Source: a virus (taxonomy: Duplodnaviria > Heunggongvirae > Uroviricota > Caudoviricetes). Taken from it: a DNA stretch of 27,580 nt. Under the pieces are notes generated by a model that was not told the origin of the DNA, did not search any database, and saw only the letters and a list, made by a program, of their open reading frames with translations. Of this stretch, positions 6,919 through 20,389 are shown piece after piece. The position numbers were made by a program, and so were the translations under genes. The stretch lies in IMG/VR virus record IMGVR_UViG_2671180903_000020; one strand, written 5' to 3'. The first letter of the stretch is position 1. The number at the start of each line of letters is the position of its first letter.

Positions 6919-7887
6919 TTAGTAGGTTATTTTTGTTGCGAATACTTCGCCTTTTACGATGGCTGTTATGATATTTTTAGCAACATCTTCTGATGCACCA
7001 ACCTTGATAAGGTCAGCAAGTATTTTGTTATTTACTTCTTTCCGGTGAGCTTTATCCTTTGCTCTACGCTCTTCTTCTTCCTTGATTCTTTTTTCTTCTG
7101 CTATTCTGGCTTGCTCTTTTGCTTCAGCCTCGCGCCGGATTCGTTCAGCCTCCTCCTGTGCTTTTCGGCGTTCTGCTTCAATTGCCGCCTGCTTTTCTCT
7201 TTCAGCTCGTTCTGCTGCCTCTTTTGCTTCGCGCTGTGCTCGTTGCTCGGCTTCAATGCGTTCACGCTCTGCACGTTCCGCTGCGGCCTTAGCTTCTGCT
7301 TCTCGCCTTGCTGCTGCTTCAATTTCGGCTTTTGCCTTTGCTTCGGCTTCTGCTCTGGCTTTCTCTTCAGCTTCTCTTTTTAAGCGTTCTTCATGCTCTC
7401 GCTTTTCCTGCTCCGCTTTGAGTCTTGCCTCTTCTCTTTTGCGGTCAAATTCGCGATCCATCAAAATCGCTATTTCATGGTCAGACTCAATTTGCTTTGC
7501 GAGAGCTTCAGCTGCTGCCTTAGCTTCTTCTTCGGCTTTAATCCGCGCCTGTTCTTCCTCATAATCAGTAAGAGGCTGGCGCGCCTTGGCTTTCAGCTCA
7601 TCAAGGCGATCACGCACTGTCTTGCGGTTGGCATCAATTAGCTTTGGAATTTCCTTCAGTTCAGCAACAAGGTCTTTGCCAAGACCATCGAGATATGTTT
7701 TCGTCTGCGCAACTTTATACGCCAGAGAAGCGATCTCCTTTCTGCCCTTTGCCGTTGTGATATCAGGCACAAAGGACATAACTTCACGTTCAACCTTTTG
7801 AAGGATTTCTTCAATCTGGTCGGCAGACTGAAATACAGTCATTGCATTTGCTTTTTCAATAACAACTAAATCTGTTACTTCACTCAT
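6919..7887 (-). CDS. Coiled-coil protein (322 aa) with a long low-complexity E/A/K/R-rich central region, in the position lambda gives to ea10
   Basis: ORF in track; central ~150 aa of EAKAKAE/AERAERE-type heptad repeats; produces the spurious Cys/Phe/Ser-rich antisense ORFs at 7045..7801. Confidence 0.7.
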   Translation of the reverse strand: MSEVTDLVVIEKANAMTVFQSADQIEEILQKVEREVMSFVPDITTAKGRKEIASLAYKVAQTKTYLDGLGKDLVAELKEIPKLIDANRKTVRDRLDELKAKARQPLTDYEEEQARIKAEEEAKAAAEALAKQIESDHEIAILMDREFDRKREEARLKAEQEKREHEERLKREAEEKARAEAEAKAKAEIEAAARREAEAKAAAERAERERIEAEQRAQREAKEAAERAEREKQAAIEAERRKAQEEAERIRREAEAKEQARIAEEKRIKEEEERRAKDKAHRKEVNNKILADLIKVGASEDVAKNIITAIVKGEVFATKITY

Positions 7888-7921
7888 ATATCCTCCTTCG
7901 TTGTATTCTTTAAAAACGCTC

Positions 7922-8290
7922 TCAGGCGGCTTTGATAGTCATATCATCTGAATCAAATATTCCTGATGTATCGATATCGGTAATTCTTATTCCTTCGCTA
8001 CCATCCATTGGAGGCCATCCTTCCTGACCATTTCCATCATTCCAGTCGAACTCACACACAACACCATATGCATTTAAGTCGCTTGAAATTGCTATAAGCA
8101 GAGCATGTTGCGCCAGCATGATTAATACAGCATTTAATACAGAGCCGTGTTTATTGAGTCGGTATTCAGAGTCTGACCAGAAATTATTAATCTGGTGAAG
8201 TTTTTCCTCTGTCATTACGTCATGGTCGATTTCAATTTCTATTGATGCTTTCCAGTCGTAATCAATGATGTATTTTTTGATGTTTGACAT
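7922..8290 (-). CDS. Strongly acidic hypothetical protein (122 aa)
   Basis: ORF in track; by my count 20+ Asp/Glu against fewer than 10 Lys/Arg; ends ...GIFDSDDMTIKAA; lies between ral and the coiled-coil gene. Confidence 0.55.
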   Translation of the reverse strand: MSNIKKYIIDYDWKASIEIEIDHDVMTEEKLHQINNFWSDSEYRLNKHGSVLNAVLIMLAQHALLIAISSDLNAYGVVCEFDWNDGNGQEGWPPMDGSEGIRITDIDTSGIFDSDDMTIKAA

Positions 8291-8310
8291 CTATTCATAT
8301 CCTCATAGAT

Positions 8311-8336
8311 AAAAAATCGCCCTCACACTGGAGGGC
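8311..8336 (-). terminator. Rho-independent terminator-like hairpin (GCCCTC-cagtgt-GAGGGC then U6 on minus strand)
   Basis: Read directly; located downstream of ral in the leftward transcription direction. Confidence 0.45.
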
Positions 8337-8472
8337 AAAGAAGATTTCCAATAATCAGAACAAATCGGCTCCTGTTTAGTTACGAGCGACATTGCTCCGT
8401 GTATTCACTCGTTGGAATGAATACACGGTGCAGTGTTTATTCTGTTATTTATGCCAAAAATAAAGGCCACTA

Positions 8473-8674
8473 TCAGGCAGCTTTGTTGTTCTGTTAACCA
8501 AGTTCTCTGGCAATCATTGCCGTCGTTCGTATTGCCCATTTATCGACATATTTCCCATCTTCCATTACAGGAAACATTTCTTCAGGCTTAACCATGCATT
8601 CCGATTGCAGCTTGCATCCATTGCATCGCTTGAATTGTCCACACCATTGATTTTTATCAATAGTCGTAGTCATA
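8473..8674 (-). pseudogene. ral: ral (restriction alleviation) carrying an apparent +1 frameshift and an in-frame TAA
   Basis: From ATG 8674: MTTTIDKNQWCG then the frame breaks at a CCC run (8639-8641); the +1 frame continues QFKRCNGCKLQSECMVKPEEMFPVMEDGKYVDKWAIRTTAMIARELG, then TAA (8494-8496), then QNNKAA and TGA at 8473. Total 202 nt versus the 201 nt I recall for lambda ral. Confidence 0.55.
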
Positions 8675-8744
8675 CGGATAGTCCTGGTATTGTTCCATCA
8701 CATCCTGAGGATGCTCTTCGAACTCTTCAAATTCTTCTTCCATA
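8658..8744 (-). CDS. 28-codon highly acidic ORF overlapping the ral start by 17 nt (lambda orf28 position)
   Basis: Hand translation MEEEFEEFEEHPQDVMEQYQDYPYDYDY*; AAGGTGA Shine-Dalgarno 4 nt upstream; geometry matches what I recall of lambda orf28. Confidence 0.4.
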
Positions 8745-8870
8745 TATCACCTTAAATAGTGGATTGCGGTAGTAAAGATTGTGCCTGTCTTTTAACCACA
8801 TCAGGCTCGGTGGTTCTCGTGTACCCCTACAGCGAGAAATCGGATAAACTATTACAACCCCTACAGTTTG

Positions 8871-9422
8871 ATGAGTATAGAAATGGATCCACTCGTTATT
8901 CTCGGACGAGTGTTCAGTAATGAACCTCTGGAGAGAACCATGTATATGATCGTTATCTGGGTTGGACTTCTGCTTTTAAGCCCAGATAACTGGCCTGAAT
9001 ATGTTAATGAGAGAATCGGTATTCCTCATGTGTGGCATGTTTTCGTCTTTGCTCTTGCATTTTCGCTAGCAATTAATGTGCATCGATTATCAGCTATTGC
9101 CAGCGCCAGATATAAGCGATTTAAGCTAAGAAAACGCATTAAGATGCAAAACGATAAAGTGCGATCAGTAATTCAAAACCTTACAGAAGAGCAATCTATG
9201 GTTTTGTGCGCAGCCCTTAATGAAGGCAGGAAGTATGTGGTTACATCAAAACAATTCCCATACATTAGTGAGTTGATTGAGCTTGGTGTGTTGAACAAAA
9301 CTTTTTCCCGATGGAACGGGAAGCATATATTATTCCCTATTGAGGATATTTACTGGACTGAATTAGTTGCCAGCTATGATCCATATAATATTGAGATAAA
9401 GCCAAGGCCAATATCTAAGTAA
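8871..9422 (+). CDS. sieB: Superinfection exclusion protein B (membrane protein); ATG 8871 (track starts at TTG 8868)
   Basis: Hydrophobic N-terminal half (MYMIVIWVGLLLLSPDNWPEYVNERIGIPHVWHVFVFALAFSLAINVH...) resembling lambda SieB; convergent with N, stop codons abut. Confidence 0.75.
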   Translation: MSIEMDPLVILGRVFSNEPLERTMYMIVIWVGLLLLSPDNWPEYVNERIGIPHVWHVFVFALAFSLAINVHRLSAIASARYKRFKLRKRIKMQNDKVRSVIQNLTEEQSMVLCAALNEGRKYVVTSKQFPYISELIELGVLNKTFSRWNGKHILFPIEDIYWTELVASYDPYNIEIKPRPISK

Positions 9423-9746
9423 CTAGGTAAGAGGAATCGATTTTCCCTTAATTTTCTGGCGTCCACTGCATGTTATGCCGCGTTCGCCAGGCTTGCTGTA
9501 CCATGTGCGCTGATTCTTGCGCTCAATACGTTGCAGGTTGCTTTCAATCTGTTTGTGGTATTCAGCCAGCACTGTAAGGTCTATCGGATTTAGTGCGCTT
9601 TCTACTCGTGATTTCGGTTTGCGATTCAGCGAGAGAATAGGGCGGTTAACTGGTTTTGCGCTTACCCCAACCAACAGGGGATTTGCTGCTTTCCATTGAG
9701 CCTGTTTCTCTGCGCGACGTTCGCGGCGGCGTGTTTGTGCATCCAT
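9423..9746 (-). CDS. N: Antitermination protein N (107 aa), internal start of the tracked 136-aa ORF
   Basis: MDAQTRRRERRAEKQAQWKAANPLLVGVSAKPVNRPILSLNRKPKSRVESALNPIDLTVLAEYHKQIESNLQRIERKNQRTWYSKPGERGITCSGRQKIKGKSIPL matches lambda N including the Arg-rich RNA-binding N-terminus. Confidence 0.9.
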   Translation of the reverse strand: MDAQTRRRERRAEKQAQWKAANPLLVGVSAKPVNRPILSLNRKPKSRVESALNPIDLTVLAEYHKQIESNLQRIERKNQRTWYSKPGERGITCSGRQKIKGKSIPLT

Positions 9747-9803
9747 CTGGATTCTCCTGTCAGTTAGCTTTGGTGGTGTGTGGCTGTTGTAGTCCTGAAC
9801 GAA

Positions 9804-9820
9804 CCCCCCCCCCCCCCCCC
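9804..9820. repeat. Homopolymer tract C17 (G17 on the N mRNA strand) in the N 5' leader
   Basis: Counted directly: gaac + 17 C + gcgattggcac; about 58 nt upstream of the N start codon. Confidence 0.9.
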
Positions 9821-9913
9821 GCGATTGGCACATTGGCAGCTAATCCGGAATCGCACTTCCGGCCAATGCTTCGTTTCGTATCACACACCCCAAAGCCTTC
9901 TGCTTTGAATGCT

Positions 9914-9944
9914 GCCCTTCTTCAGGGCTTAATTTTTAAGAGCA
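9914..9944 (-). promoter_or_regulatory. nutL: nutL (boxB hairpin GCCCTGAAGAAGGGC at 9914..9928 and boxA-like element at 9936..9944)
   Basis: Reverse complement reads TGCTCTTAAAAATTAAGCCCTGAAGAAGGGC, matching lambda nut boxA/boxB organisation. Confidence 0.75.
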
Positions 9945-9988
9945 TCACCTTCATGGTGGTCAGTGCGTCCTGCTGATGGTTTAAAATT

Positions 9989-10056
9989 ACAAGAAAGATT
10001 GTATGTTGTAAACAATAAATATTGTAAAAAGAGGTGTGCAAAACAAACTCCATTGT
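9989..10056 (-). promoter_or_regulatory. OL operators (three 14-bp ACAA-N6-TTGT sites, 434 type) overlapping pL
   Basis: ACAAGAAAGATTGT (9989..10002), ACAATAAATATTGT (10012..10025), ACAAACTCCATTGT (10043..10056). Confidence 0.7.
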
Positions 10057-10106
10057 TTTTAAACGGAAAATAGTTTGTTTTTTGGTTATTGAGATTGAGG
10101 TGGGGA

Positions 10107-11459
<1,353 letters not shown>

Positions 11460-11467
11460 GACATTCC

Positions 11468-11499
11468 CGCTCTTACACATCCCCGCCCTGAAAAAGGGC
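11468..11499 (+). promoter_or_regulatory. nutR: nutR (boxA CGCTCTTACA, boxB GCCCTGAAAAAGGGC), followed by tR1 region
   Basis: Read directly; matches lambda nutR. Confidence 0.7.
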
Positions 11500-11578
11500 A
11501 TCCAATTAAACCACACCTATGGTGTATGCATTTATTTGCATACATTCAATCAATTGTTATCTAAGGAAATACTTACAT

Positions 11579-11872
11579 ATGGTTCGTGCAAACAAACGCA
11601 ACGAGGCTCTACGAATCGAGAGTGCGTTGCTTAACAAAATCGCAATGCTTGGAACTGAGAAGACAGCGGAAGCTGTGGGAGTTGATAAGTCGCAGATCAG
11701 CAGGTGGAAGAGAGACTGGATTCCAAAGTTCTCAATGCTGCTTGCTGTTCTTGAATGGGGGGTCGTTGACGACGACATGGCTCGATTGGCGCGACAAGTT
11801 GCTGCGATTCTCACCAATAAAAAACGCCCGGCGGCAACCGAGCGTTCTGAACAAATCCAGATGGAGTTCTGA
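11579..11872 (+). CDS. cII: CII transcriptional activator (97 aa)
   Basis: MVRANKRNEALRIESALLNKIAMLGTEKTAEAVGVDKSQISRWKRDWIPKFSMLLAVLEWGVVDDDMARLARQVAAILTNKKRPAATERSEQIQMEF matches lambda CII. Confidence 0.9.
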   Translation: MVRANKRNEALRIESALLNKIAMLGTEKTAEAVGVDKSQISRWKRDWIPKFSMLLAVLEWGVVDDDMARLARQVAAILTNKKRPAATERSEQIQMEF

Positions 11873-11894
11873 GGTCATTACTGGATCTATCAAC
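11817..11894 (-). ncRNA. oop: oop antisense RNA, overlapping the cII 3' end
   Basis: Reverse complement reads GTTGATAGATCCAGTAATGACCTCAGAACTCCATCTGGATTTGTTCAGAACGCTCGGTTGCCGCCGGGCGTTTTTTATT, i.e. lambda oop with its terminator hairpin. Confidence 0.65.
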
Positions 11895-11904
11895 AGGAGT
11901 CATT

Positions 11905-12804
11905 ATGACAAATACAGCAAAAATACTCAACTTCGGCAGAGGTAACTTTGCCGGACAGGAGCGTAATGTGGCAGATCTCGATGATGGTTACGCCAGACTA
12001 TCAAATATGCTGCTTGAGGCTTATTCAGGCGCAGATCTGACCAAGCGACAGTTTAAAGTGCTGCTTGCCATTCTGCGTAAAACCTATGGGTGGAATAAAC
12101 CAATGGACAGAATCACCGATTCTCAACTTAGTGAGATTACAAAGTTACCTGTCAAACGATGCAATGAAGCCAAGTTAGAGCTCGTCAGAATGAATATTAT
12201 CAAGCAGCAAGGCGGCATGTTTGGACCAAATAAAAACATCTCAGAATGGTGCATCCCTCAAAACGAGGGAAAATCCCCTAAAACGAGGGATAAAACATCC
12301 CTCAAATTGGGGGATTGCTATCCCTCAAAACAGGGGGACACAAAAGACACTATTACAAAAGAAAAAAGAAAAGATTATTCGTCCGAGAATTCTGGCGAAT
12401 CCTCTGACCAGCCAGAAAACGATCTTTCTGTGGTTAAACCGGATGCTGCAATTCAGAGCGGCAGCAGGTGGGGGACAGCAGAAGACCTGACCGCCGCAGA
12501 GTGGATGTTTGACATGGTGAAGACTATCGCGCCATCAGCCAGAAAACCGAATTTTGCAGGGTGGGCTAACGATATCCGCCTGATGCGTGAACGTGACGGA
12601 CGTAACCACCGCGACATGTGCGTGCTGTTCCGCTGGGCATGCCTGGACAACTTCTGGTCCGGTAACGTGCTGAGCCCGGCCAAACTCCGCGACAAGTGGA
12701 CCCAGCTCGAAATCAACCGTAACAAGCAACAGGCAGTAGTGACAGCCAGCAAACCAAAACTCGACTTGACAAACACAGACTGGATTTACGGGGTGGATCT
12801 ATGA
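11905..12804 (+). CDS. O: Replication initiator O (299 aa)
   Basis: MTNTAKILNFGRGNFAGQERNVADLDDGYARLSNMLLEAYSGADLTKRQFKVLLAILRKTYGWNKPMDRITDSQLSEITKL... matches lambda O. Confidence 0.95.
   Translation: MTNTAKILNFGRGNFAGQERNVADLDDGYARLSNMLLEAYSGADLTKRQFKVLLAILRKTYGWNKPMDRITDSQLSEITKLPVKRCNEAKLELVRMNIIKQQGGMFGPNKNISEWCIPQNEGKSPKTRDKTSLKLGDCYPSKQGDTKDTITKEKRKDYSSENSGESSDQPENDLSVVKPDAAIQSGSRWGTAEDLTAAEWMFDMVKTIAPSARKPNFAGWANDIRLMRERDGRNHRDMCVLFRWACLDNFWSGNVLSPAKLRDKWTQLEINRNKQQAVVTASKPKLDLTNTDWIYGVDL
12253..12380. repeat. ori-lambda: four ~19-bp iterons (TCCCTCAAAACGAGGGA-like) plus adjacent AT-rich region, inside O
   Basis: atccctcaaaacgagggaaa / atcccctaaaacgagggata / catccctcaaattgggggat / tatccctcaaaacagggggac then aaaagaaaaaagaaaag. 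Confidence 0.8.
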
Positions 12805-13502
12805 AAAACATCGCCGCACAGATGGTTAACTTTGACCGTGAGCAGATGCGTCGGATCGCCAACAACATGCCGGAACAGTACGACGAAAAGCCGCAGGTAC
12901 AGCAGGTAGCGCAGATCATCAACGGTGTGTTCAGCCAGTTACTGGCAACTTTCCCGGCGAGCCTGGCTAACCGTGACCAGAACGAACTGAACGAAATCCG
13001 CCGCCAGTGGGTTCTGGCTTTCCGGGAAAACGGGATCACCACGATGGAACAGGTTAACGCAGGAATGCGCGTAGCCCGTCGGCAGAATCGACCATTCCTG
13101 CCATCACCCGGGCAGTTTGTTGCCTGGTGTCGTGAAGAAGCATCTGTTATTGCCGGACTGCCAAACGCCAGCGAGCTGGTTGATATGGTTTACGAGTATT
13201 GCCGGAAGCGTGGCCTGTATCCAGATGCAGAGTCTTATCCGTGGAAATCAAACGCGCACTACTGGCTGGTTACCAACCTGTACCAGAACATGCGGGCCAA
13301 TGCGCTGACTGACGCGGAATTACGGCGTAAGGCTGCCGATGAGCTGACCTGTATGACAGCGCGAATTAACTGTGGTGAGACTATACCTGAACCAGTAAAA
13401 CAACTTCCTGTCATGGGCGGCAGACCTCTAAATCGAGCACAGGCTCTGGCGAAGATCGCAGAAATTAAAGCTAAGTTCGGACTGAAAGGAGCAAGTGTAT
13501 GA
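12801..13502 (+). CDS. P: Replication protein P (DnaB helicase loader, 233 aa)
   Basis: MKNIAAQMVNFDREQMRRIANNMPEQYDEKPQVQQVAQIINGVFSQLLATFPASLANRDQNELNEIRRQWVLAFRENGITTMEQVNAGMRVARRQNRPFLPSPGQFVAWC... matches lambda P. Confidence 0.95.
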   Translation: MKNIAAQMVNFDREQMRRIANNMPEQYDEKPQVQQVAQIINGVFSQLLATFPASLANRDQNELNEIRRQWVLAFRENGITTMEQVNAGMRVARRQNRPFLPSPGQFVAWCREEASVIAGLPNASELVDMVYEYCRKRGLYPDAESYPWKSNAHYWLVTNLYQNMRANALTDAELRRKAADELTCMTARINCGETIPEPVKQLPVMGGRPLNRAQALAKIAEIKAKFGLKGASV

Positions 13503-13789
13503 CGGGCAAAGAGGCAATTATTCATTACCTCGGAACGCATAAGAGCTTCTGTGCACAGGACGTTTCCGCGCTAACAGGCGCAACAGTAACCAGCATAAAT
13601 CAGGCCGCGGCTAAAATGGCACGGGCAGGTCTTCTGGTTATCGAAGGTAAGGTCTGGCGAACGGTGTATTACCGGTTCGCTACCAGAGAAGAACGGGAAG
13701 GAAAGGTGAGCACGAACCTGATTTTTAAGGAGTGTCGCCAGAGTGCCGCGATGAAACGGGTATTGGCGGTATATGGAGTTAAAAGATGA
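13499..13789 (+). CDS. ren: Ren (96 aa)
   Basis: MTGKEAIIHYLGTHKSFCAQDVSALTGATVTSINQAAAKMARAGLLVIEGKVWRTVYYRFATREEREGK... matches lambda Ren. Confidence 0.85.
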   Translation: MTGKEAIIHYLGTHKSFCAQDVSALTGATVTSINQAAAKMARAGLLVIEGKVWRTVYYRFATREEREGKVSTNLIFKECRQSAAMKRVLAVYGVKR

Positions 13790-13862
13790 CCATCTACATC
13801 ACTGAGCTAATAACAGGCCTGCTGGTAATCGCAGGCCTTTTTATTTGGGGGAGAGGGAAGTC

Positions 13863-14303
13863 ATGAAAAAACTAACCTTTGAAATTCGATCTCCAGCACA
13901 TCAGCAAAACGCTATTCACGCGGTACAGCAAATTCTTCCAGACCCAACCAAACCAATCGTAGTAACCATTCAGGAACGCAACCGCAGCTTAGACCAGAAT
14001 CGAAAGCTTTGGGCTTGCCTTGGTGACGTCTCTCGTCAGGTTGAATGGCATGATCGCTGGCTGGATGCAGAAAGCTGGAAGTGCGTTTTTACAGCAGCAT
14101 TAAAGCAGCAGGACGTTGTTCCTAACCTTGCCGGGAATGGCTTTGTGGTAATAGGCCAGTCAACCAGCAGGATGCGTGTAAGCGAATTTGCGGAGCTATT
14201 AGAGCTTATACAGGCATTCGGTACAGAGCGTGGCGTTAAGTGGTCAGACGAAGCGCGACTGGCTCTCGAATGGAAAGCGCGATGGGGAGATCGGGCTGCA
14301 TGA
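13863..14303 (+). CDS. ninB: NinB (146 aa), start at internal Met of tracked ORF
   Basis: MKKLTFEIRSPAHQQNAIHAVQQILPDPTKPIVVTIQERNRSLDQNRKLWACLGDVSRQVEWHDRWLDAESWKCVFTAALKQQDVVPNLAGNGFVVIGQSTSRMRVSEF... matches lambda NinB. Confidence 0.85.
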   Translation: MKKLTFEIRSPAHQQNAIHAVQQILPDPTKPIVVTIQERNRSLDQNRKLWACLGDVSRQVEWHDRWLDAESWKCVFTAALKQQDVVPNLAGNGFVVIGQSTSRMRVSEFAELLELIQAFGTERGVKWSDEARLALEWKARWGDRAA

Positions 14304-14827
14304 CTATCAAATCAAATACGCCATCACACGACAAGGACTGCTGGCAAACGCCGCTCTGGCTTTTTGATGCACTGGATATTGAGTTTGGATTCTGGCTGGA
14401 TTCGGCAGCGAGCGACAAAAACGCTCTGTGCGCTCACTGGCTAACTGAGGCTGACGACGCGCTAAATTCTGAGTGGATAAGCCACGGTGCAATCTGGAAT
14501 AACCCACCGTACAGCAATATCAGGCCGTGGGTGGAAAAAGCCGCTGAGCAGTGCATACAACAACGACAGACGGTAGTGATGCTTGTGCCAGAGGATATGT
14601 CTGTCGGATGGTTCAGCAAGGCTCTGGAGAGTGTTGACGAAGTTCGCATTATCACTGATGGACGGATTAATTTTATCGAACCATCGACAGGGCTGGAGAA
14701 GAAGGGAAACAGCAAAGGCTCCATGCTGCTGATTTGGCGACCGTTCATCAGTCCTCGACGGATGTTTACTACTGTATCCAAAGCGGCATTGATGGCAATC
14801 GGGCATGGCGTCAGGAGGGCGGCATGA
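14300..14827 (+). CDS. Phage DNA N6-adenine methyltransferase (Dam-like, 175 aa)
   Basis: Catalytic motif NPPY ([10 protein letters not shown]); ATG 14300 overlaps ninB stop (ATGA); occupies the position of lambda ninC. Confidence 0.8.
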
Positions 14828-15006
14828 GGCGACAGCGACGAAGTATCACCGACATAATCTGCGAAAACTGCAAATACCTTCCAACGAAACGCTCCAGAAA
14901 TAAACGCAAGCCAATCCCAAAAGAATCTGACGTAAAAACCTTCAATTACACGGCTCACCTGTGGGATATCCGGTGGCTAAGACATTGTGCGAGGAAAACA
15001 AGGTGA
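14824..15006 (+). CDS. Small nin-region protein (60 aa), NinD/NinE-like
   Basis: [40 protein letters not shown]...; ATGA overlap with methylase stop. Confidence 0.6.
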
Positions 15007-15170
15007 TTGACCAAAATCGAAGTTACGAACAAGAAAGCGTCGAGCGAGCTTTAACGTGCGCTAACTGCGGTCAGAAGCTGCATGTGCTGGAAGTTCACGT
15101 GTGTGAGCACTGCTGCGCAGAGTTAATGGCAGACCCTAACGGACAAATGCTGGAGGAAGATGATGAGTGA
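15003..15170 (+). CDS. Small Cys-rich nin-region protein (55 aa), NinF-like; GTG start
   Basis: (M)[54 protein letters not shown]; GTGA overlap with upstream stop, GAGGAAAA Shine-Dalgarno. Confidence 0.6.
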
Positions 15171-15465
15171 GTTACGCGCAGGTGGCATCGCAATAGTCAT
15201 TTTTTCAGAAAACAAACCCGAAATTGGCAGATGCGTTGAGTTAATCGAAAAAGTAACAAACGGATATGTATTTAATTTTCCTGGTGCAGGTAAGCATAGT
15301 TGGCGTGATGACACCCCTGGGTGGCTAGTTAAAGGCGATGTATCGATTTATACAAACGAGCCTTCAGGTGGTTTCTCTTATTTTTACAGTGATGAACTCA
15401 TGCCAATCGACGGAGAAGACTTCTCTCACGAAGATGAGCAACAGAAGGAGCTGGCAAATGGCTAA
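15160..15465 (+). CDS. Hypothetical nin-region protein (101 aa)
   Basis: ORF in track packed between NinF-like and NinX-like genes; no family recognised. Confidence 0.5.
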   Translation: MMSELRAGGIAIVIFSENKPEIGRCVELIEKVTNGYVFNFPGAGKHSWRDDTPGWLVKGDVSIYTNEPSGGFSYFYSDELMPIDGEDFSHEDEQQKELANG

Positions 15466-15748
15466 TCTACGCAAAGAAGCGCGCGGAAGAGAATGTCAGG
15501 TGCGTATTTACGGCGTATGCAATGGCAATCCTGAAACTACAGTTCTGGCACATTACCGGATGGCTGGAATTTGCGGAACGGGAATGAAGCCTGACGACCT
15601 GATCGGCGCATGGGCTTGTAGCGCGTGTCACGATGAAATCGACCGACGCACCCATAATCTCGACAACAAAGACGCCAGACTTTACCACCTCGAAGGCGTG
15701 ATCAGGACGCAGGCGATACTGCTGAAGGAGGGGAAGATTAAGCCATGA
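15458..15748 (+). CDS. NinX / DUF1364-like Cys-rich protein (96 aa)
   Basis: MANLRKEARGRECQVRIYGVCNGNPETTVLAHYRMAGICGTGMKPDDLIGAWACSACHDEIDRRTH...; family call from memory. Confidence 0.6.
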   Translation: MANLRKEARGRECQVRIYGVCNGNPETTVLAHYRMAGICGTGMKPDDLIGAWACSACHDEIDRRTHNLDNKDARLYHLEGVIRTQAILLKEGKIKP

Positions 15749-17149: not shown

Positions 17150-17908
17150 ATGAGTTGTAAGCCAATGTTATCATCTTGTATTGGGGTGGTTATGAAGGAT
17201 GGTGCGCTGCTCAGGAGTTCTTCACTTTTTATTGCCTACATGGGATGCCTTGGATGGGGGAGTGCTTATTTCTATGGATGGGGTACTTCTTTTTACTACG
17301 GCTTCCCATGGTGGATTGTAGGTGCAGGTGTTGATGATGTTGCCAGAAGTTTATTTTTTGCAGTTATCGTCATTGCTATATTTCTTATCGGTTGGGGTAT
17401 TGGTGTTGTATTCTTTTTCGCAGTGAAAAGAAAACATTCTATGCAAGAGCTAAATGTATTTCGCCTTTATTTTGCTGTGGAATTATTGTTTGTGCCGGCA
17501 ATTATTGAGTTTTCTATATTGAGACAGAAGATTCAGGTACCTCTTTTGCTACTGTCAGCAGCGATTGCGCTGGCGGTTACAATTTCGATAAGATCTTATG
17601 GGCGATTTTTATCGGTATCATGCTTCTATGATAAGCCATTTATAAAAAAACATTTTTTTGAGATTGTGATGATTGCTTTTGTGGCATATTTCTGGCTTTT
17701 TTCATTTCTGACAGGATATTACAAACCGCAGTTTAAGAAAGAATATGAAATGATTAATTATAATGATGGTTGGTATTATGTTCTTGCTCGTTATGATAAT
17801 TGTCTGGTTTTGTCTACTTCTTTCAATGCAGGTAGTAAAAGGTTTGTCATTTATCAATCAGCACAAGATAAGAATCTTCAGGTTGATATTGTAAGGACCA
17901 GAATTTAA
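17150..17908 (+). CDS. AT-rich multi-pass membrane protein of unknown function (238-252 aa; likely start ATG 17192 after GGGGTGG)
   Basis: At least four hydrophobic helix-length segments (e.g. LFFAVIVIAIFLIGWGIGVVFFFAV, VPLLLLSAAIALAVTISI, FFEIVMIAFVAYFWLFSFLTG) then a ~60-aa soluble tail; GC far below flanking phage genes. Confidence 0.6.
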   Translation: MSCKPMLSSCIGVVMKDGALLRSSSLFIAYMGCLGWGSAYFYGWGTSFYYGFPWWIVGAGVDDVARSLFFAVIVIAIFLIGWGIGVVFFFAVKRKHSMQELNVFRLYFAVELLFVPAIIEFSILRQKIQVPLLLLSAAIALAVTISIRSYGRFLSVSCFYDKPFIKKHFFEIVMIAFVAYFWLFSFLTGYYKPQFKKEYEMINYNDGWYYVLARYDNCLVLSTSFNAGSKRFVIYQSAQDKNLQVDIVRTRI

Positions 17909-18451: not shown

Positions 18452-20389
18452 ATGTCGATTAAACATTATGATGTTGTCAGGGCGGCGTCGCCGTCAGATC
18501 TTGCGGAAAAGCTGACACACAAACTGAAAGAGGGCTGGCAGCCGTTTGGTAGTCCTGTGGCCATAACCCCTTATACCCTGATGCAGGCGATTGCCGCGGA
18601 GGGGGATGTGACCACGCCAGTGGTTGTGCCCGGCACGGGGGATGGTGGCTATCCGGGAGTGGTCACCACGGAGCCAGATTATTACTACGTTATTCCACTG
18701 GCCGGGCAGTCGAACGGCATGGCTTACGGTGAGGGGCTTCCTCTGCCGCAGACATATGACCGTCCTGACCCGCGTATAAAGCAACTGGCTCGTCGCAGCA
18801 CAGTGACGCCGGATGGCGCTCCCTGTAAATATAACGACATTATTCCGGCAGACCACTGTCTGCATGATGTACAGGACATGAGCCGTCTTAACCATCCGAA
18901 AGCTGACCTGTCGAAAGGTCAGTACGGAACCGTGGGGCAGGGGCTGCATATTGCCAAAAAGCTGCTGCCGTTTATACCGGCGAATGCGGGTATTCTTCTG
19001 GTTCCGTGCTGCCGTGGTGGTTCAGCTTTCACCACCGGGGCAGATGGAACATACAGTGACGTGACCGGTGCCTCAGAGAGTTCTACCCGCTGGGGTGTGG
19101 GCAGGCCGCTGTATAAGGATCTCATCGGTCGTACAAAAGCCGCGCTGGCAAAGAACCCGAAAAATGTGCTGCTTGCCGTGGTGTGGATGCAGGGGGAATT
19201 TGACTTTGACGGAACGCCAGCAAATCACACAGCCCGTTTTACAGAAGTAGTGGAACAATATCGTACGGACCTTGCAGATATGGTGGGACAGTGCGCTGGT
19301 GGTTCTGCTGACGGTGTTCCCTGGATATGTGGAGACACAACTTATTTCTGGAAGCAGAAGAGCGAATCCACTTACCAGACGGTGTACGGCAGTTACAAAA
19401 ACAAAACGGAAAAGAATATTCACTTTGTGCCGTTCATGACCGATGAGAACGGAGCAAATGTCCCGACGAACAAACCGGAAGAAGACCCGGATATTCCGGC
19501 ATCAGGATATTACGGTGCGGCCTCCCGGACGTCGGCAAACTGGACGTCAGCAGACCGTGCGAGCCATTTCAGCTCATGGGCACGCAGGGGGATTATTTCT
19601 GACCGTCTTGCCTCAGCGATTCTTCTCCATGCAGGACGGACGGCTGAACTGGTGGGTGGGGAACAGGTTGTGATGCCGCCGGATGAGAAGCCGTCACCGG
19701 ACACACCATCAACACCGTCAACGGACGGGAAATCAGTGACAACGCTGCTTTATTACCGTGCAACAGAGTCAGGTGGTTTACTGAATCCGCAGGGATGGGG
19801 AGCTGAAGGAGGGCGTGCATTGGTAGTTGATGATGCAGGTGCTGCAGGAGGTAAGGCGCTGAGGTGGACCAAACAGACAGGAAGTTCCTCGTGGTTTATG
19901 CAGCATGATGTCGGTAATGGCGCAGACCTGCTGGAGAAGGGCGGGCTTATCAGTTGTCGTTTTAAAGTTGATGGCACACTGACAGCTAATCAGTACGCAC
20001 TGGCGCTGTACTGGCCGGTTTCTTCACTGCCTCAGGGCGTCACACTGGAAGGTAATGCCGGTCATAACCTGCTGGCGTCGTTTTACGTACAGAGCGATGC
20101 CACAGACCTTAATGTGATGTACCACAAGGGAAATGCTGGTCAGAACACGAAGCTGGGGTCATTCGGCGCATTTGATAACGAATGGCATACGCTGGGCTTC
20201 CGTTTTGCCGGTAACAACAGTATTGAGGTGACGCCGGTCATTGATGGTAAGGACGGGACGCCGTTCATGCTGTCACAGTCACCGGTCGGCACGTTTACGG
20301 CAGACAAATTGCGCGTGACCGATATCACTAGCGGTGCGACATATCCGGTGCTGATTGAAAGTATAACAGTGGAAGTGAATAACCCGTAA
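18452..20389 (+). CDS. nanS-p: Prophage sialate O-acetylesterase (NanS-p type, 645 aa)
   Basis: Recognised from memory as the esterase encoded downstream of stx in Stx phages; N-terminus MSIKHYDVVRAASPSDLAEKLTHKLKEGWQPFGSP; GGGAGA Shine-Dalgarno. Confidence 0.8.
   Translation: MSIKHYDVVRAASPSDLAEKLTHKLKEGWQPFGSPVAITPYTLMQAIAAEGDVTTPVVVPGTGDGGYPGVVTTEPDYYYVIPLAGQSNGMAYGEGLPLPQTYDRPDPRIKQLARRSTVTPDGAPCKYNDIIPADHCLHDVQDMSRLNHPKADLSKGQYGTVGQGLHIAKKLLPFIPANAGILLVPCCRGGSAFTTGADGTYSDVTGASESSTRWGVGRPLYKDLIGRTKAALAKNPKNVLLAVVWMQGEFDFDGTPANHTARFTEVVEQYRTDLADMVGQCAGGSADGVPWICGDTTYFWKQKSESTYQTVYGSYKNKTEKNIHFVPFMTDENGANVPTNKPEEDPDIPASGYYGAASRTSANWTSADRASHFSSWARRGIISDRLASAILLHAGRTAELVGGEQVVMPPDEKPSPDTPSTPSTDGKSVTTLLYYRATESGGLLNPQGWGAEGGRALVVDDAGAAGGKALRWTKQTGSSSWFMQHDVGNGADLLEKGGLISCRFKVDGTLTANQYALALYWPVSSLPQGVTLEGNAGHNLLASFYVQSDATDLNVMYHKGNAGQNTKLGSFGAFDNEWHTLGFRFAGNNSIEVTPVIDGKDGTPFMLSQSPVGTFTADKLRVTDITSGATYPVLIESITVEVNNP

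Follow-up and report, generated by a model that had tools for sequence, protein, structure and literature searches.

What is a perfect run of 17 cytosines doing in the leader of a phage antitermination gene, and is it a genuine feature, a regulatory device or simply an overgrown repeat? The run occupies positions 9804-9820 on the + strand of the stretch of DNA analysed here (27,580 nucleotides in full, referred to as the window) and is read as G17 on the leftward transcript. Its presence in the sequence is confirmed and it is far above chance, as about 4e-7 runs of C17 would be expected in the window from its base composition; the longest other C run is of 4 nt and the longest G run of 6 nt. 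The window has the look of an ordinary lambdoid prophage of the lambda-N / immunity-434 kind, apparently intact. The 434 cI and cro genes come after phage-434-type oL operators and pL promoter region (9980-10050), and lambda-type integrase, Q, a NanS-p-like esterase and the large terminase subunit are also encoded.

The earlier note had placed the run inside the N leader, between nutL and the N start codon, and this was borne out because the pL start, boxA and boxB could be positioned by homology to annotated records. The pL transcript probably starts at the A of AUCAGCAGG at position 9977 (- strand), which is homologous to the base annotated as 'first nt of left transcript' in the phage 434 record OL657226. 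The annotated records of mEp332 and lambda served to locate, by homology, the boxA-like octamer of nutL (UGCUCUUA, 9937-9944, -); both this octamer and boxB (GCCCUGAAGAAGGGC, 9914-9928, -) align with the annotated nutL of lambda, 434, mEp332 and Sf6. The G17 homopolymer spans +158 to +174 of the pL transcript and is followed by UU (9802-9803, -), the remnant of an ancestral U4 (G6T4 in lambda) in which two Ts are now G. The Shine-Dalgarno sequence of N (AGGAG, 9754-9758, -) corresponds by alignment to the annotated ribosome-binding site of the lambda imm434 and 434 records. The N gene itself (9423-9746, -) encodes a lambda-type antitermination protein of 107 aa ending in ...SIPLT, with its start codon at 9744-9746 (-), at +232 of the pL transcript; the run is separated from this AUG by 57 nt, close to the 'about 58 nt' given earlier. 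The product matches Pfam N36 and an identical 107-aa protein is widespread, being present in 4102 blocks of the protein collection. The locus has what a lambda-type N leader has, namely boxA and boxB downstream of pL and the N gene about 200 nt beyond nutL.

An upstream in-frame ATG opens a 136-aa 'long N' (9423-9833, -) in which the run encodes five glycines. Its counterpart in lambda is the 133-aa N of an annotation now obsolete (J02459), and the net gain of 9 nt in the run happens to preserve its frame. This is the sole ORF which reads through the run and it is spurious. The exact 136-aa product, used as a proxy for other G17 assemblies, had no record in the protein collection.

The leader has the same architecture as that of lambda and nearly the same sequence (boxA/boxB, 16-bp basal helix, Shine-Dalgarno sequence and N gene), whereas it differs in having G17T2 in place of G6T4 in the hairpin tip and promoter and operators of the phage-434 type. 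Lambda and phage Chlobot carry CGC-G6T4-CGTTC at the position of the run, in agreement with the short C-run after AAAA which the earlier note gave for lambda (AAAA followed by C6 on the + strand), while phage 434 and lambda imm434 carry G4TGT4. The window reads CGC-G17T2-CGTTC, a net gain of 9 nt over lambda with two Ts changed to G; apart from the run, its leader differs from that of lambda at three point positions. Flank-anchored scans in which the tract length was left free recovered 18 viral and 22 genome contigs. Together with Chlobot and lambda, these 40 gave G6T4 in 35 cases, G4TGT4 in three, and G7T3, G7T4, G6T3 and G10T2 in one case each.

Long alleles are rare by every route that was followed. 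None was present in 52 phage records or in the 529 complete E. coli genomes with full-length matches, where the best matches span the short length, and a query built with G8T2 gave neither an exact match nor a long allele in the 422 complete E. coli genomes with full-length matches to it. Metagenome scans yielded no long allele with the left flank; seven metagenome matches to G7+TTCGTTCAGGAC were rejected as unrelated chance matches. Relatives sampled through the exact N and Ral products had short alleles or other leader types only, the Ral marker being spread too widely over mosaic backgrounds to target the lineage. Only two long alleles, of 10 and 17, are known among several hundred leaders, and no other G or C run longer than 8 was found in about 320 kb of related loci. 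Copies of the lambda leader whose flanks match exactly were also met on tiny, often low-coverage contigs in assemblies of unrelated taxa such as Marinifilum, Nocardioides, Shewanella, Paenibacillus and others (L025-L046 among the genome-contig matches); these contigs almost certainly represent contamination by lambda control DNA.

The G10T2 allele belongs to an IMG/VR prophage, L015, which is 99.7-100% identical to window positions 7593-15608. Over these 8 kb the run is shorter by 7 nt in L015; apart from that, the two are separated only by one SNP and a two-iteron duplication, and there is no other homopolymer indel between them. The comparison shows that run expansion is not confined to one assembly, as L015 was assembled independently, that run length varies between near-identical prophages, and that homopolymers of the window are not noisy as a rule. 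The earlier note had expected such a tract to be hypermutable and had proposed a comparison with homologous prophages as a check. The expectation holds, with 10 Gs against 17 in near-identical prophages, and the comparison places G10T2 in L015 and G17T2 in the window beside short alleles in the relatives. The iterons in question are those of the replication origin inside the O gene, four in the window (12253-12339) and six in L015 (4653-4777), where a 39-nt segment with two iterons is duplicated.

When haplotypes were called from the leaders after removal of the run, the background {35C>T, 120T>G} carried G6T4 at seven loci and G7T3 at one (L009). The derived background, to which 176T>A is added, carried G7T3 (L061 and L054), G10T2 (L015) and G17T2 (the window). 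Since the leaders form nested haplotypes, stepwise lengthening along a single lineage is indicated, and G8T2 is the only unobserved step of the series G6T4, G7T3, G10T2, G17T2. In the closest complete-genome relative (L054, from E. coli 2022H047) G7T3 is accompanied by an extra T>G change giving CGGTC and not CGTTC; this change lies two bases past the run, corresponds to about position 9798 of the window and falls within the same few bases as the T>G changes of the run.

A plausible mutational route for this series can be proposed from the sequences. Among over 100,000 mutations analysed in E. coli, an A directly 5' of three or more Cs was the strongest A:T>C:G hotspot; it was ascribed to transient misalignment, by which the neighbouring base becomes the base of the run, and it escapes both proofreading and mismatch repair (PMC13250602, 2026). 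As the same study points out, it is chiefly for slippage, giving insertions and deletions, that runs are known as hotspots (PMC13250602). The ancestral + strand AAAACCCCCC presents exactly an A adjoining a C6 run. The hotspot would have turned As into Cs, from A4C6 to A3C7 to A2C8 (on the RNA G6T4 to G7T3 and presumably G8T2), and from a length of about 8 replication slippage would have extended the run to 10 and then to 17. The series A4C6, A3C7, A2C(n) of the window lineage is exactly the run-extending A:T>C:G change predicted for such a hotspot, whereas the published hotspot concerns substitutions and the growth from about 8 to 10 to 17 needs insertion slippage, which is our own addition. 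On these grounds, an AC-run hotspot followed by slippage is the probable mutational mechanism.

The foremost competing explanation is that the strain really has a short run (G6-G8), or one of quite another length, and that C17 is a mis-called homopolymer produced in sequencing or assembly. Long G/C homopolymers are error-prone on all platforms, and poly-G/C runs of at least 17 in public phage contigs are mostly end artefacts; of 120 such runs sampled in IMG/VR, 93 were no more than 150 nt from the end of the sequence retrieved. Old drafts show error-like single-base variants on a pure lambda background, G7T4 (L030) and G6T3 (L035), and the difference between 10 and 17 in near-identical prophages could itself reflect measurement. 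However, the present run is internal, with perfect collinear flanks homologous to lambda and the relatives. The conversions from T4 to T2 are common to the independent assembly of L015, G7T3 is found in several complete genomes of the same lineage, and no other homopolymer indel separates the window from L015 over 8 kb. Moreover, the reads should have contained the run, because 17 nt is shorter than the usual assembly k-mers. We give the mis-called homopolymer a low probability for these reasons, and a pure artefact is unlikely. The expanded run is real in the lineage, because its T-to-G conversions are shared with L015 and G7T3 occurs in complete genomes of that lineage, and the length of exactly 17 is provisional at the level of the assembly. 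A dG:dC homopolymer-tailed cloning junction was also considered and rejected; there is no junction, both flanks are contiguous N leader and natural prophages share the haplotype.

In our reading, the run is probably a hypermutable repeat which has grown in one lambda-N / immunity-434 sub-lineage and is tolerated because it is located in the dispensable tip of the N-leader hairpin. In lambda this hairpin brings nutL near the ribosome site of N for N autoregulation. Folding of the window leader gives a large hairpin closed by a 16-bp basal helix, and the inverted repeat of its arms was detected independently. The 5' arm (GGCUUUGGGGUGUGUG, 9882-9897, -) corresponds to +81 to +96 of the RNA and the 3' arm (CACACACC-A-CCAAAGCU, 9766-9782, -) to +196 to +212. 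Between them lies the apical, evolutionarily plastic part of the hairpin (9783-9881, -), and the run falls in its apical multiloop; the basal helix is kept in all the alleles folded. No curated Rfam family was matched in the leader.

The N leaders compared (window, L003, L005, L006 and L055-L064) are modular, with nutL, the 16-bp basal helix and the Shine-Dalgarno sequence conserved around a hairpin tip that exists in at least four unrelated versions across lambdoid phages, ranging from 78 to 236 nt. A covariation count on a single MAFFT alignment was dropped, as the leader types lie in different registers, and the modules were folded independently instead. All four of them (lambda-like of 126 nt, 434-like of 125 nt, Sf6-like of 236 nt and mEp332-like of 78 nt) share the basal helix with compensatory differences.

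Partition-function folding of alleles from G6 to G24 showed no change in the probability of the basal helix (0.98-1.0), and the earlier suggestion that the run impedes RNase III processing thus finds no support from folding. The same is true of the suggestion that it impedes translation initiation, as the unpaired probabilities of the Shine-Dalgarno sequence (0.36) and the AUG (0.45) stayed constant over this range, along with the boxB pairing probability of 1.0. The unpaired probability of boxA was also constant across the alleles, the pairing partners of the run were all local, and the G run was not predicted to pair at long range with boxA, boxB or the Shine-Dalgarno sequence. The run is clear of the ribosome-binding site, from which the basal helix divides it. 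The sole length-dependent feature was a predicted local G-quadruplex (ViennaRNA G-quadruplex model), with two tiers from n of at least 11, three from at least 15 and four by n = 20. For G17 the three-tier quadruplex brings a large stabilisation (minimum free energy of -122.9 against -89.5 kcal/mol), and in this respect the stable G-rich RNA structure anticipated in the earlier note is supported in silico. The quadruplex potential is not conserved, all other alleles having 10 Gs or fewer and lying under the predicted threshold.

Since the basal helix, nutL and ribosome site are all predicted to be unaffected, the run most likely has no effect, or shifts the level of pL-operon expression modestly, for which an RNA G-quadruplex formed locally or a G-rich non-template strand might be responsible. 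By these equilibrium thermodynamic models the run would be close to neutral. RNase III reportedly cuts the lambda basal helix at about +88 and about +197 and thereby uncouples nutL from the N message, in work attributed to Steege et al. 1987 and Wilson et al. 1997 and 2002. If the lambda cuts hold here, the run would fall in the excised fragment and would then be absent from the processed N mRNA; its removal by RNase III is thus suggested by analogy with lambda. It has further been described that N and Nus factors bound at NutL repress N translation and that the intervening leader is highly structured (PMC5725501).

A functional alternative is that the run acts as a rheostat, its length heritably and reversibly tuning the expression of N and the pL operon and hence the efficiency of induction, either by means of an RNA G-quadruplex or by a G-rich non-template strand with an R-loop which slows RNA polymerase or alters RNase III processing. 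The prediction of a three-tier quadruplex only at n of 15 or more would place a threshold between the G10 and G17 alleles, the length is polymorphic between sister prophages, and the run is carried on the transcript of a key early regulator. Against this, the run belongs to no length-sensitive element, neither a promoter spacer nor a genuine ORF; the basal helix, boxA, boxB and the accessibility of the Shine-Dalgarno sequence and AUG are predicted to be constant; the run sits within a hairpin tip that varies freely among phages; and RNase III is said to remove this tip from the N message. The reading is disfavoured because long alleles are extremely rare, with 2 among several hundred leaders and no hint of selection for them. 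It is quite doubtful as it stands, and the present evidence does not favour run-length tuning of N expression.

Two stronger forms of regulation can be set beside it. A self-elongating contingency element, in which the quadruplex or R-loop would throttle N and the early-left operon once the run grows past about 15 nt and so make lysogens heterogeneous in inducibility, is very unlikely. An on/off switch for N, as the earlier note had suggested, is also unlikely; the run is non-coding and only the spurious 'long N' crosses it, and no promoter-like site was found near it, so it has no promoter-spacer role. The switch is unsupported because no reading frame or promoter spacing depends on the run. 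Like a phase-variable locus, the tract exceeds the length of about 8 at which slippage becomes frequent and its length differs in near-identical genomes (two observations only), but it lies in neither a real coding frame nor a promoter spacer.

Finally, we regard it as highly improbable that the other strand is the relevant one, with Rho loading onto the C17 of the rightward sieB read-through RNA and thereby curbing antisense transcription into pL and the immunity region; sieB (8868-9422, +) does converge on N and rightward transcripts would cross the run as poly-C, the preferred ligand of Rho, but Rho utilisation sites are typically much longer than 17 nt, a structure resembling a terminator (antisense boxB and a T run) stands about 100 nt downstream on the + strand, and the run is missing from nearly all relatives. 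The antisense boxB (9914-9928, +), followed by the T-rich TTAATTTTTA, scores as intrinsic-terminator-like for rightward transcription, although a single site of this kind is no more than shuffling of the region would give. Read-through from sieB could be halted there before it reaches pL.

In comparison to known systems, a slippage-prone homopolymer is a feature of a known kind and its setting is a well-known regulatory leader. The run shares a long G/C tract, length polymorphism and expected slippage with the poly-G/C contingency tracts of Neisseria, Haemophilus, Campylobacter and some phages. In contrast to them, the present one is outside any real frame or promoter spacer, has no obvious binary output and belongs to E. 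coli, a species in which runs of this sort are very uncommon. As in the RNA G-quadruplexes of bacterial 5' leaders, G17 would be able to form an intramolecular three-tier quadruplex by the ViennaRNA model; on the other hand, the run is not conserved, lies off the ribosome site and is placed by folding inside a hairpin tip.

If the run is a passenger repeat, it provides a clean natural example of a homopolymer born by an AC-run hotspot and then grown by slippage. It would also show that the N-leader hairpin tip is free to vary, and it marks a position at which discrepancies between assemblies of the prophage family are to be expected. If instead the run length should prove to tune N, a temperate phage would be seen to vary its induction frequency by a new route.

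Elsewhere in the window, two ORFs have no Pfam match, one of 322 aa (6919-7887, -) which is extremely rich in Glu, Ala, Lys and Arg, and one of 252 aa (17150-17908, +) downstream of Q. The late region encodes a 645-aa protein (18452-20389, +) with DUF1737, sialate O-acetylesterase (SASA) and DUF6645 domains, which we take to be of the NanS-p type, presumably typical of Stx-phage-like late regions.
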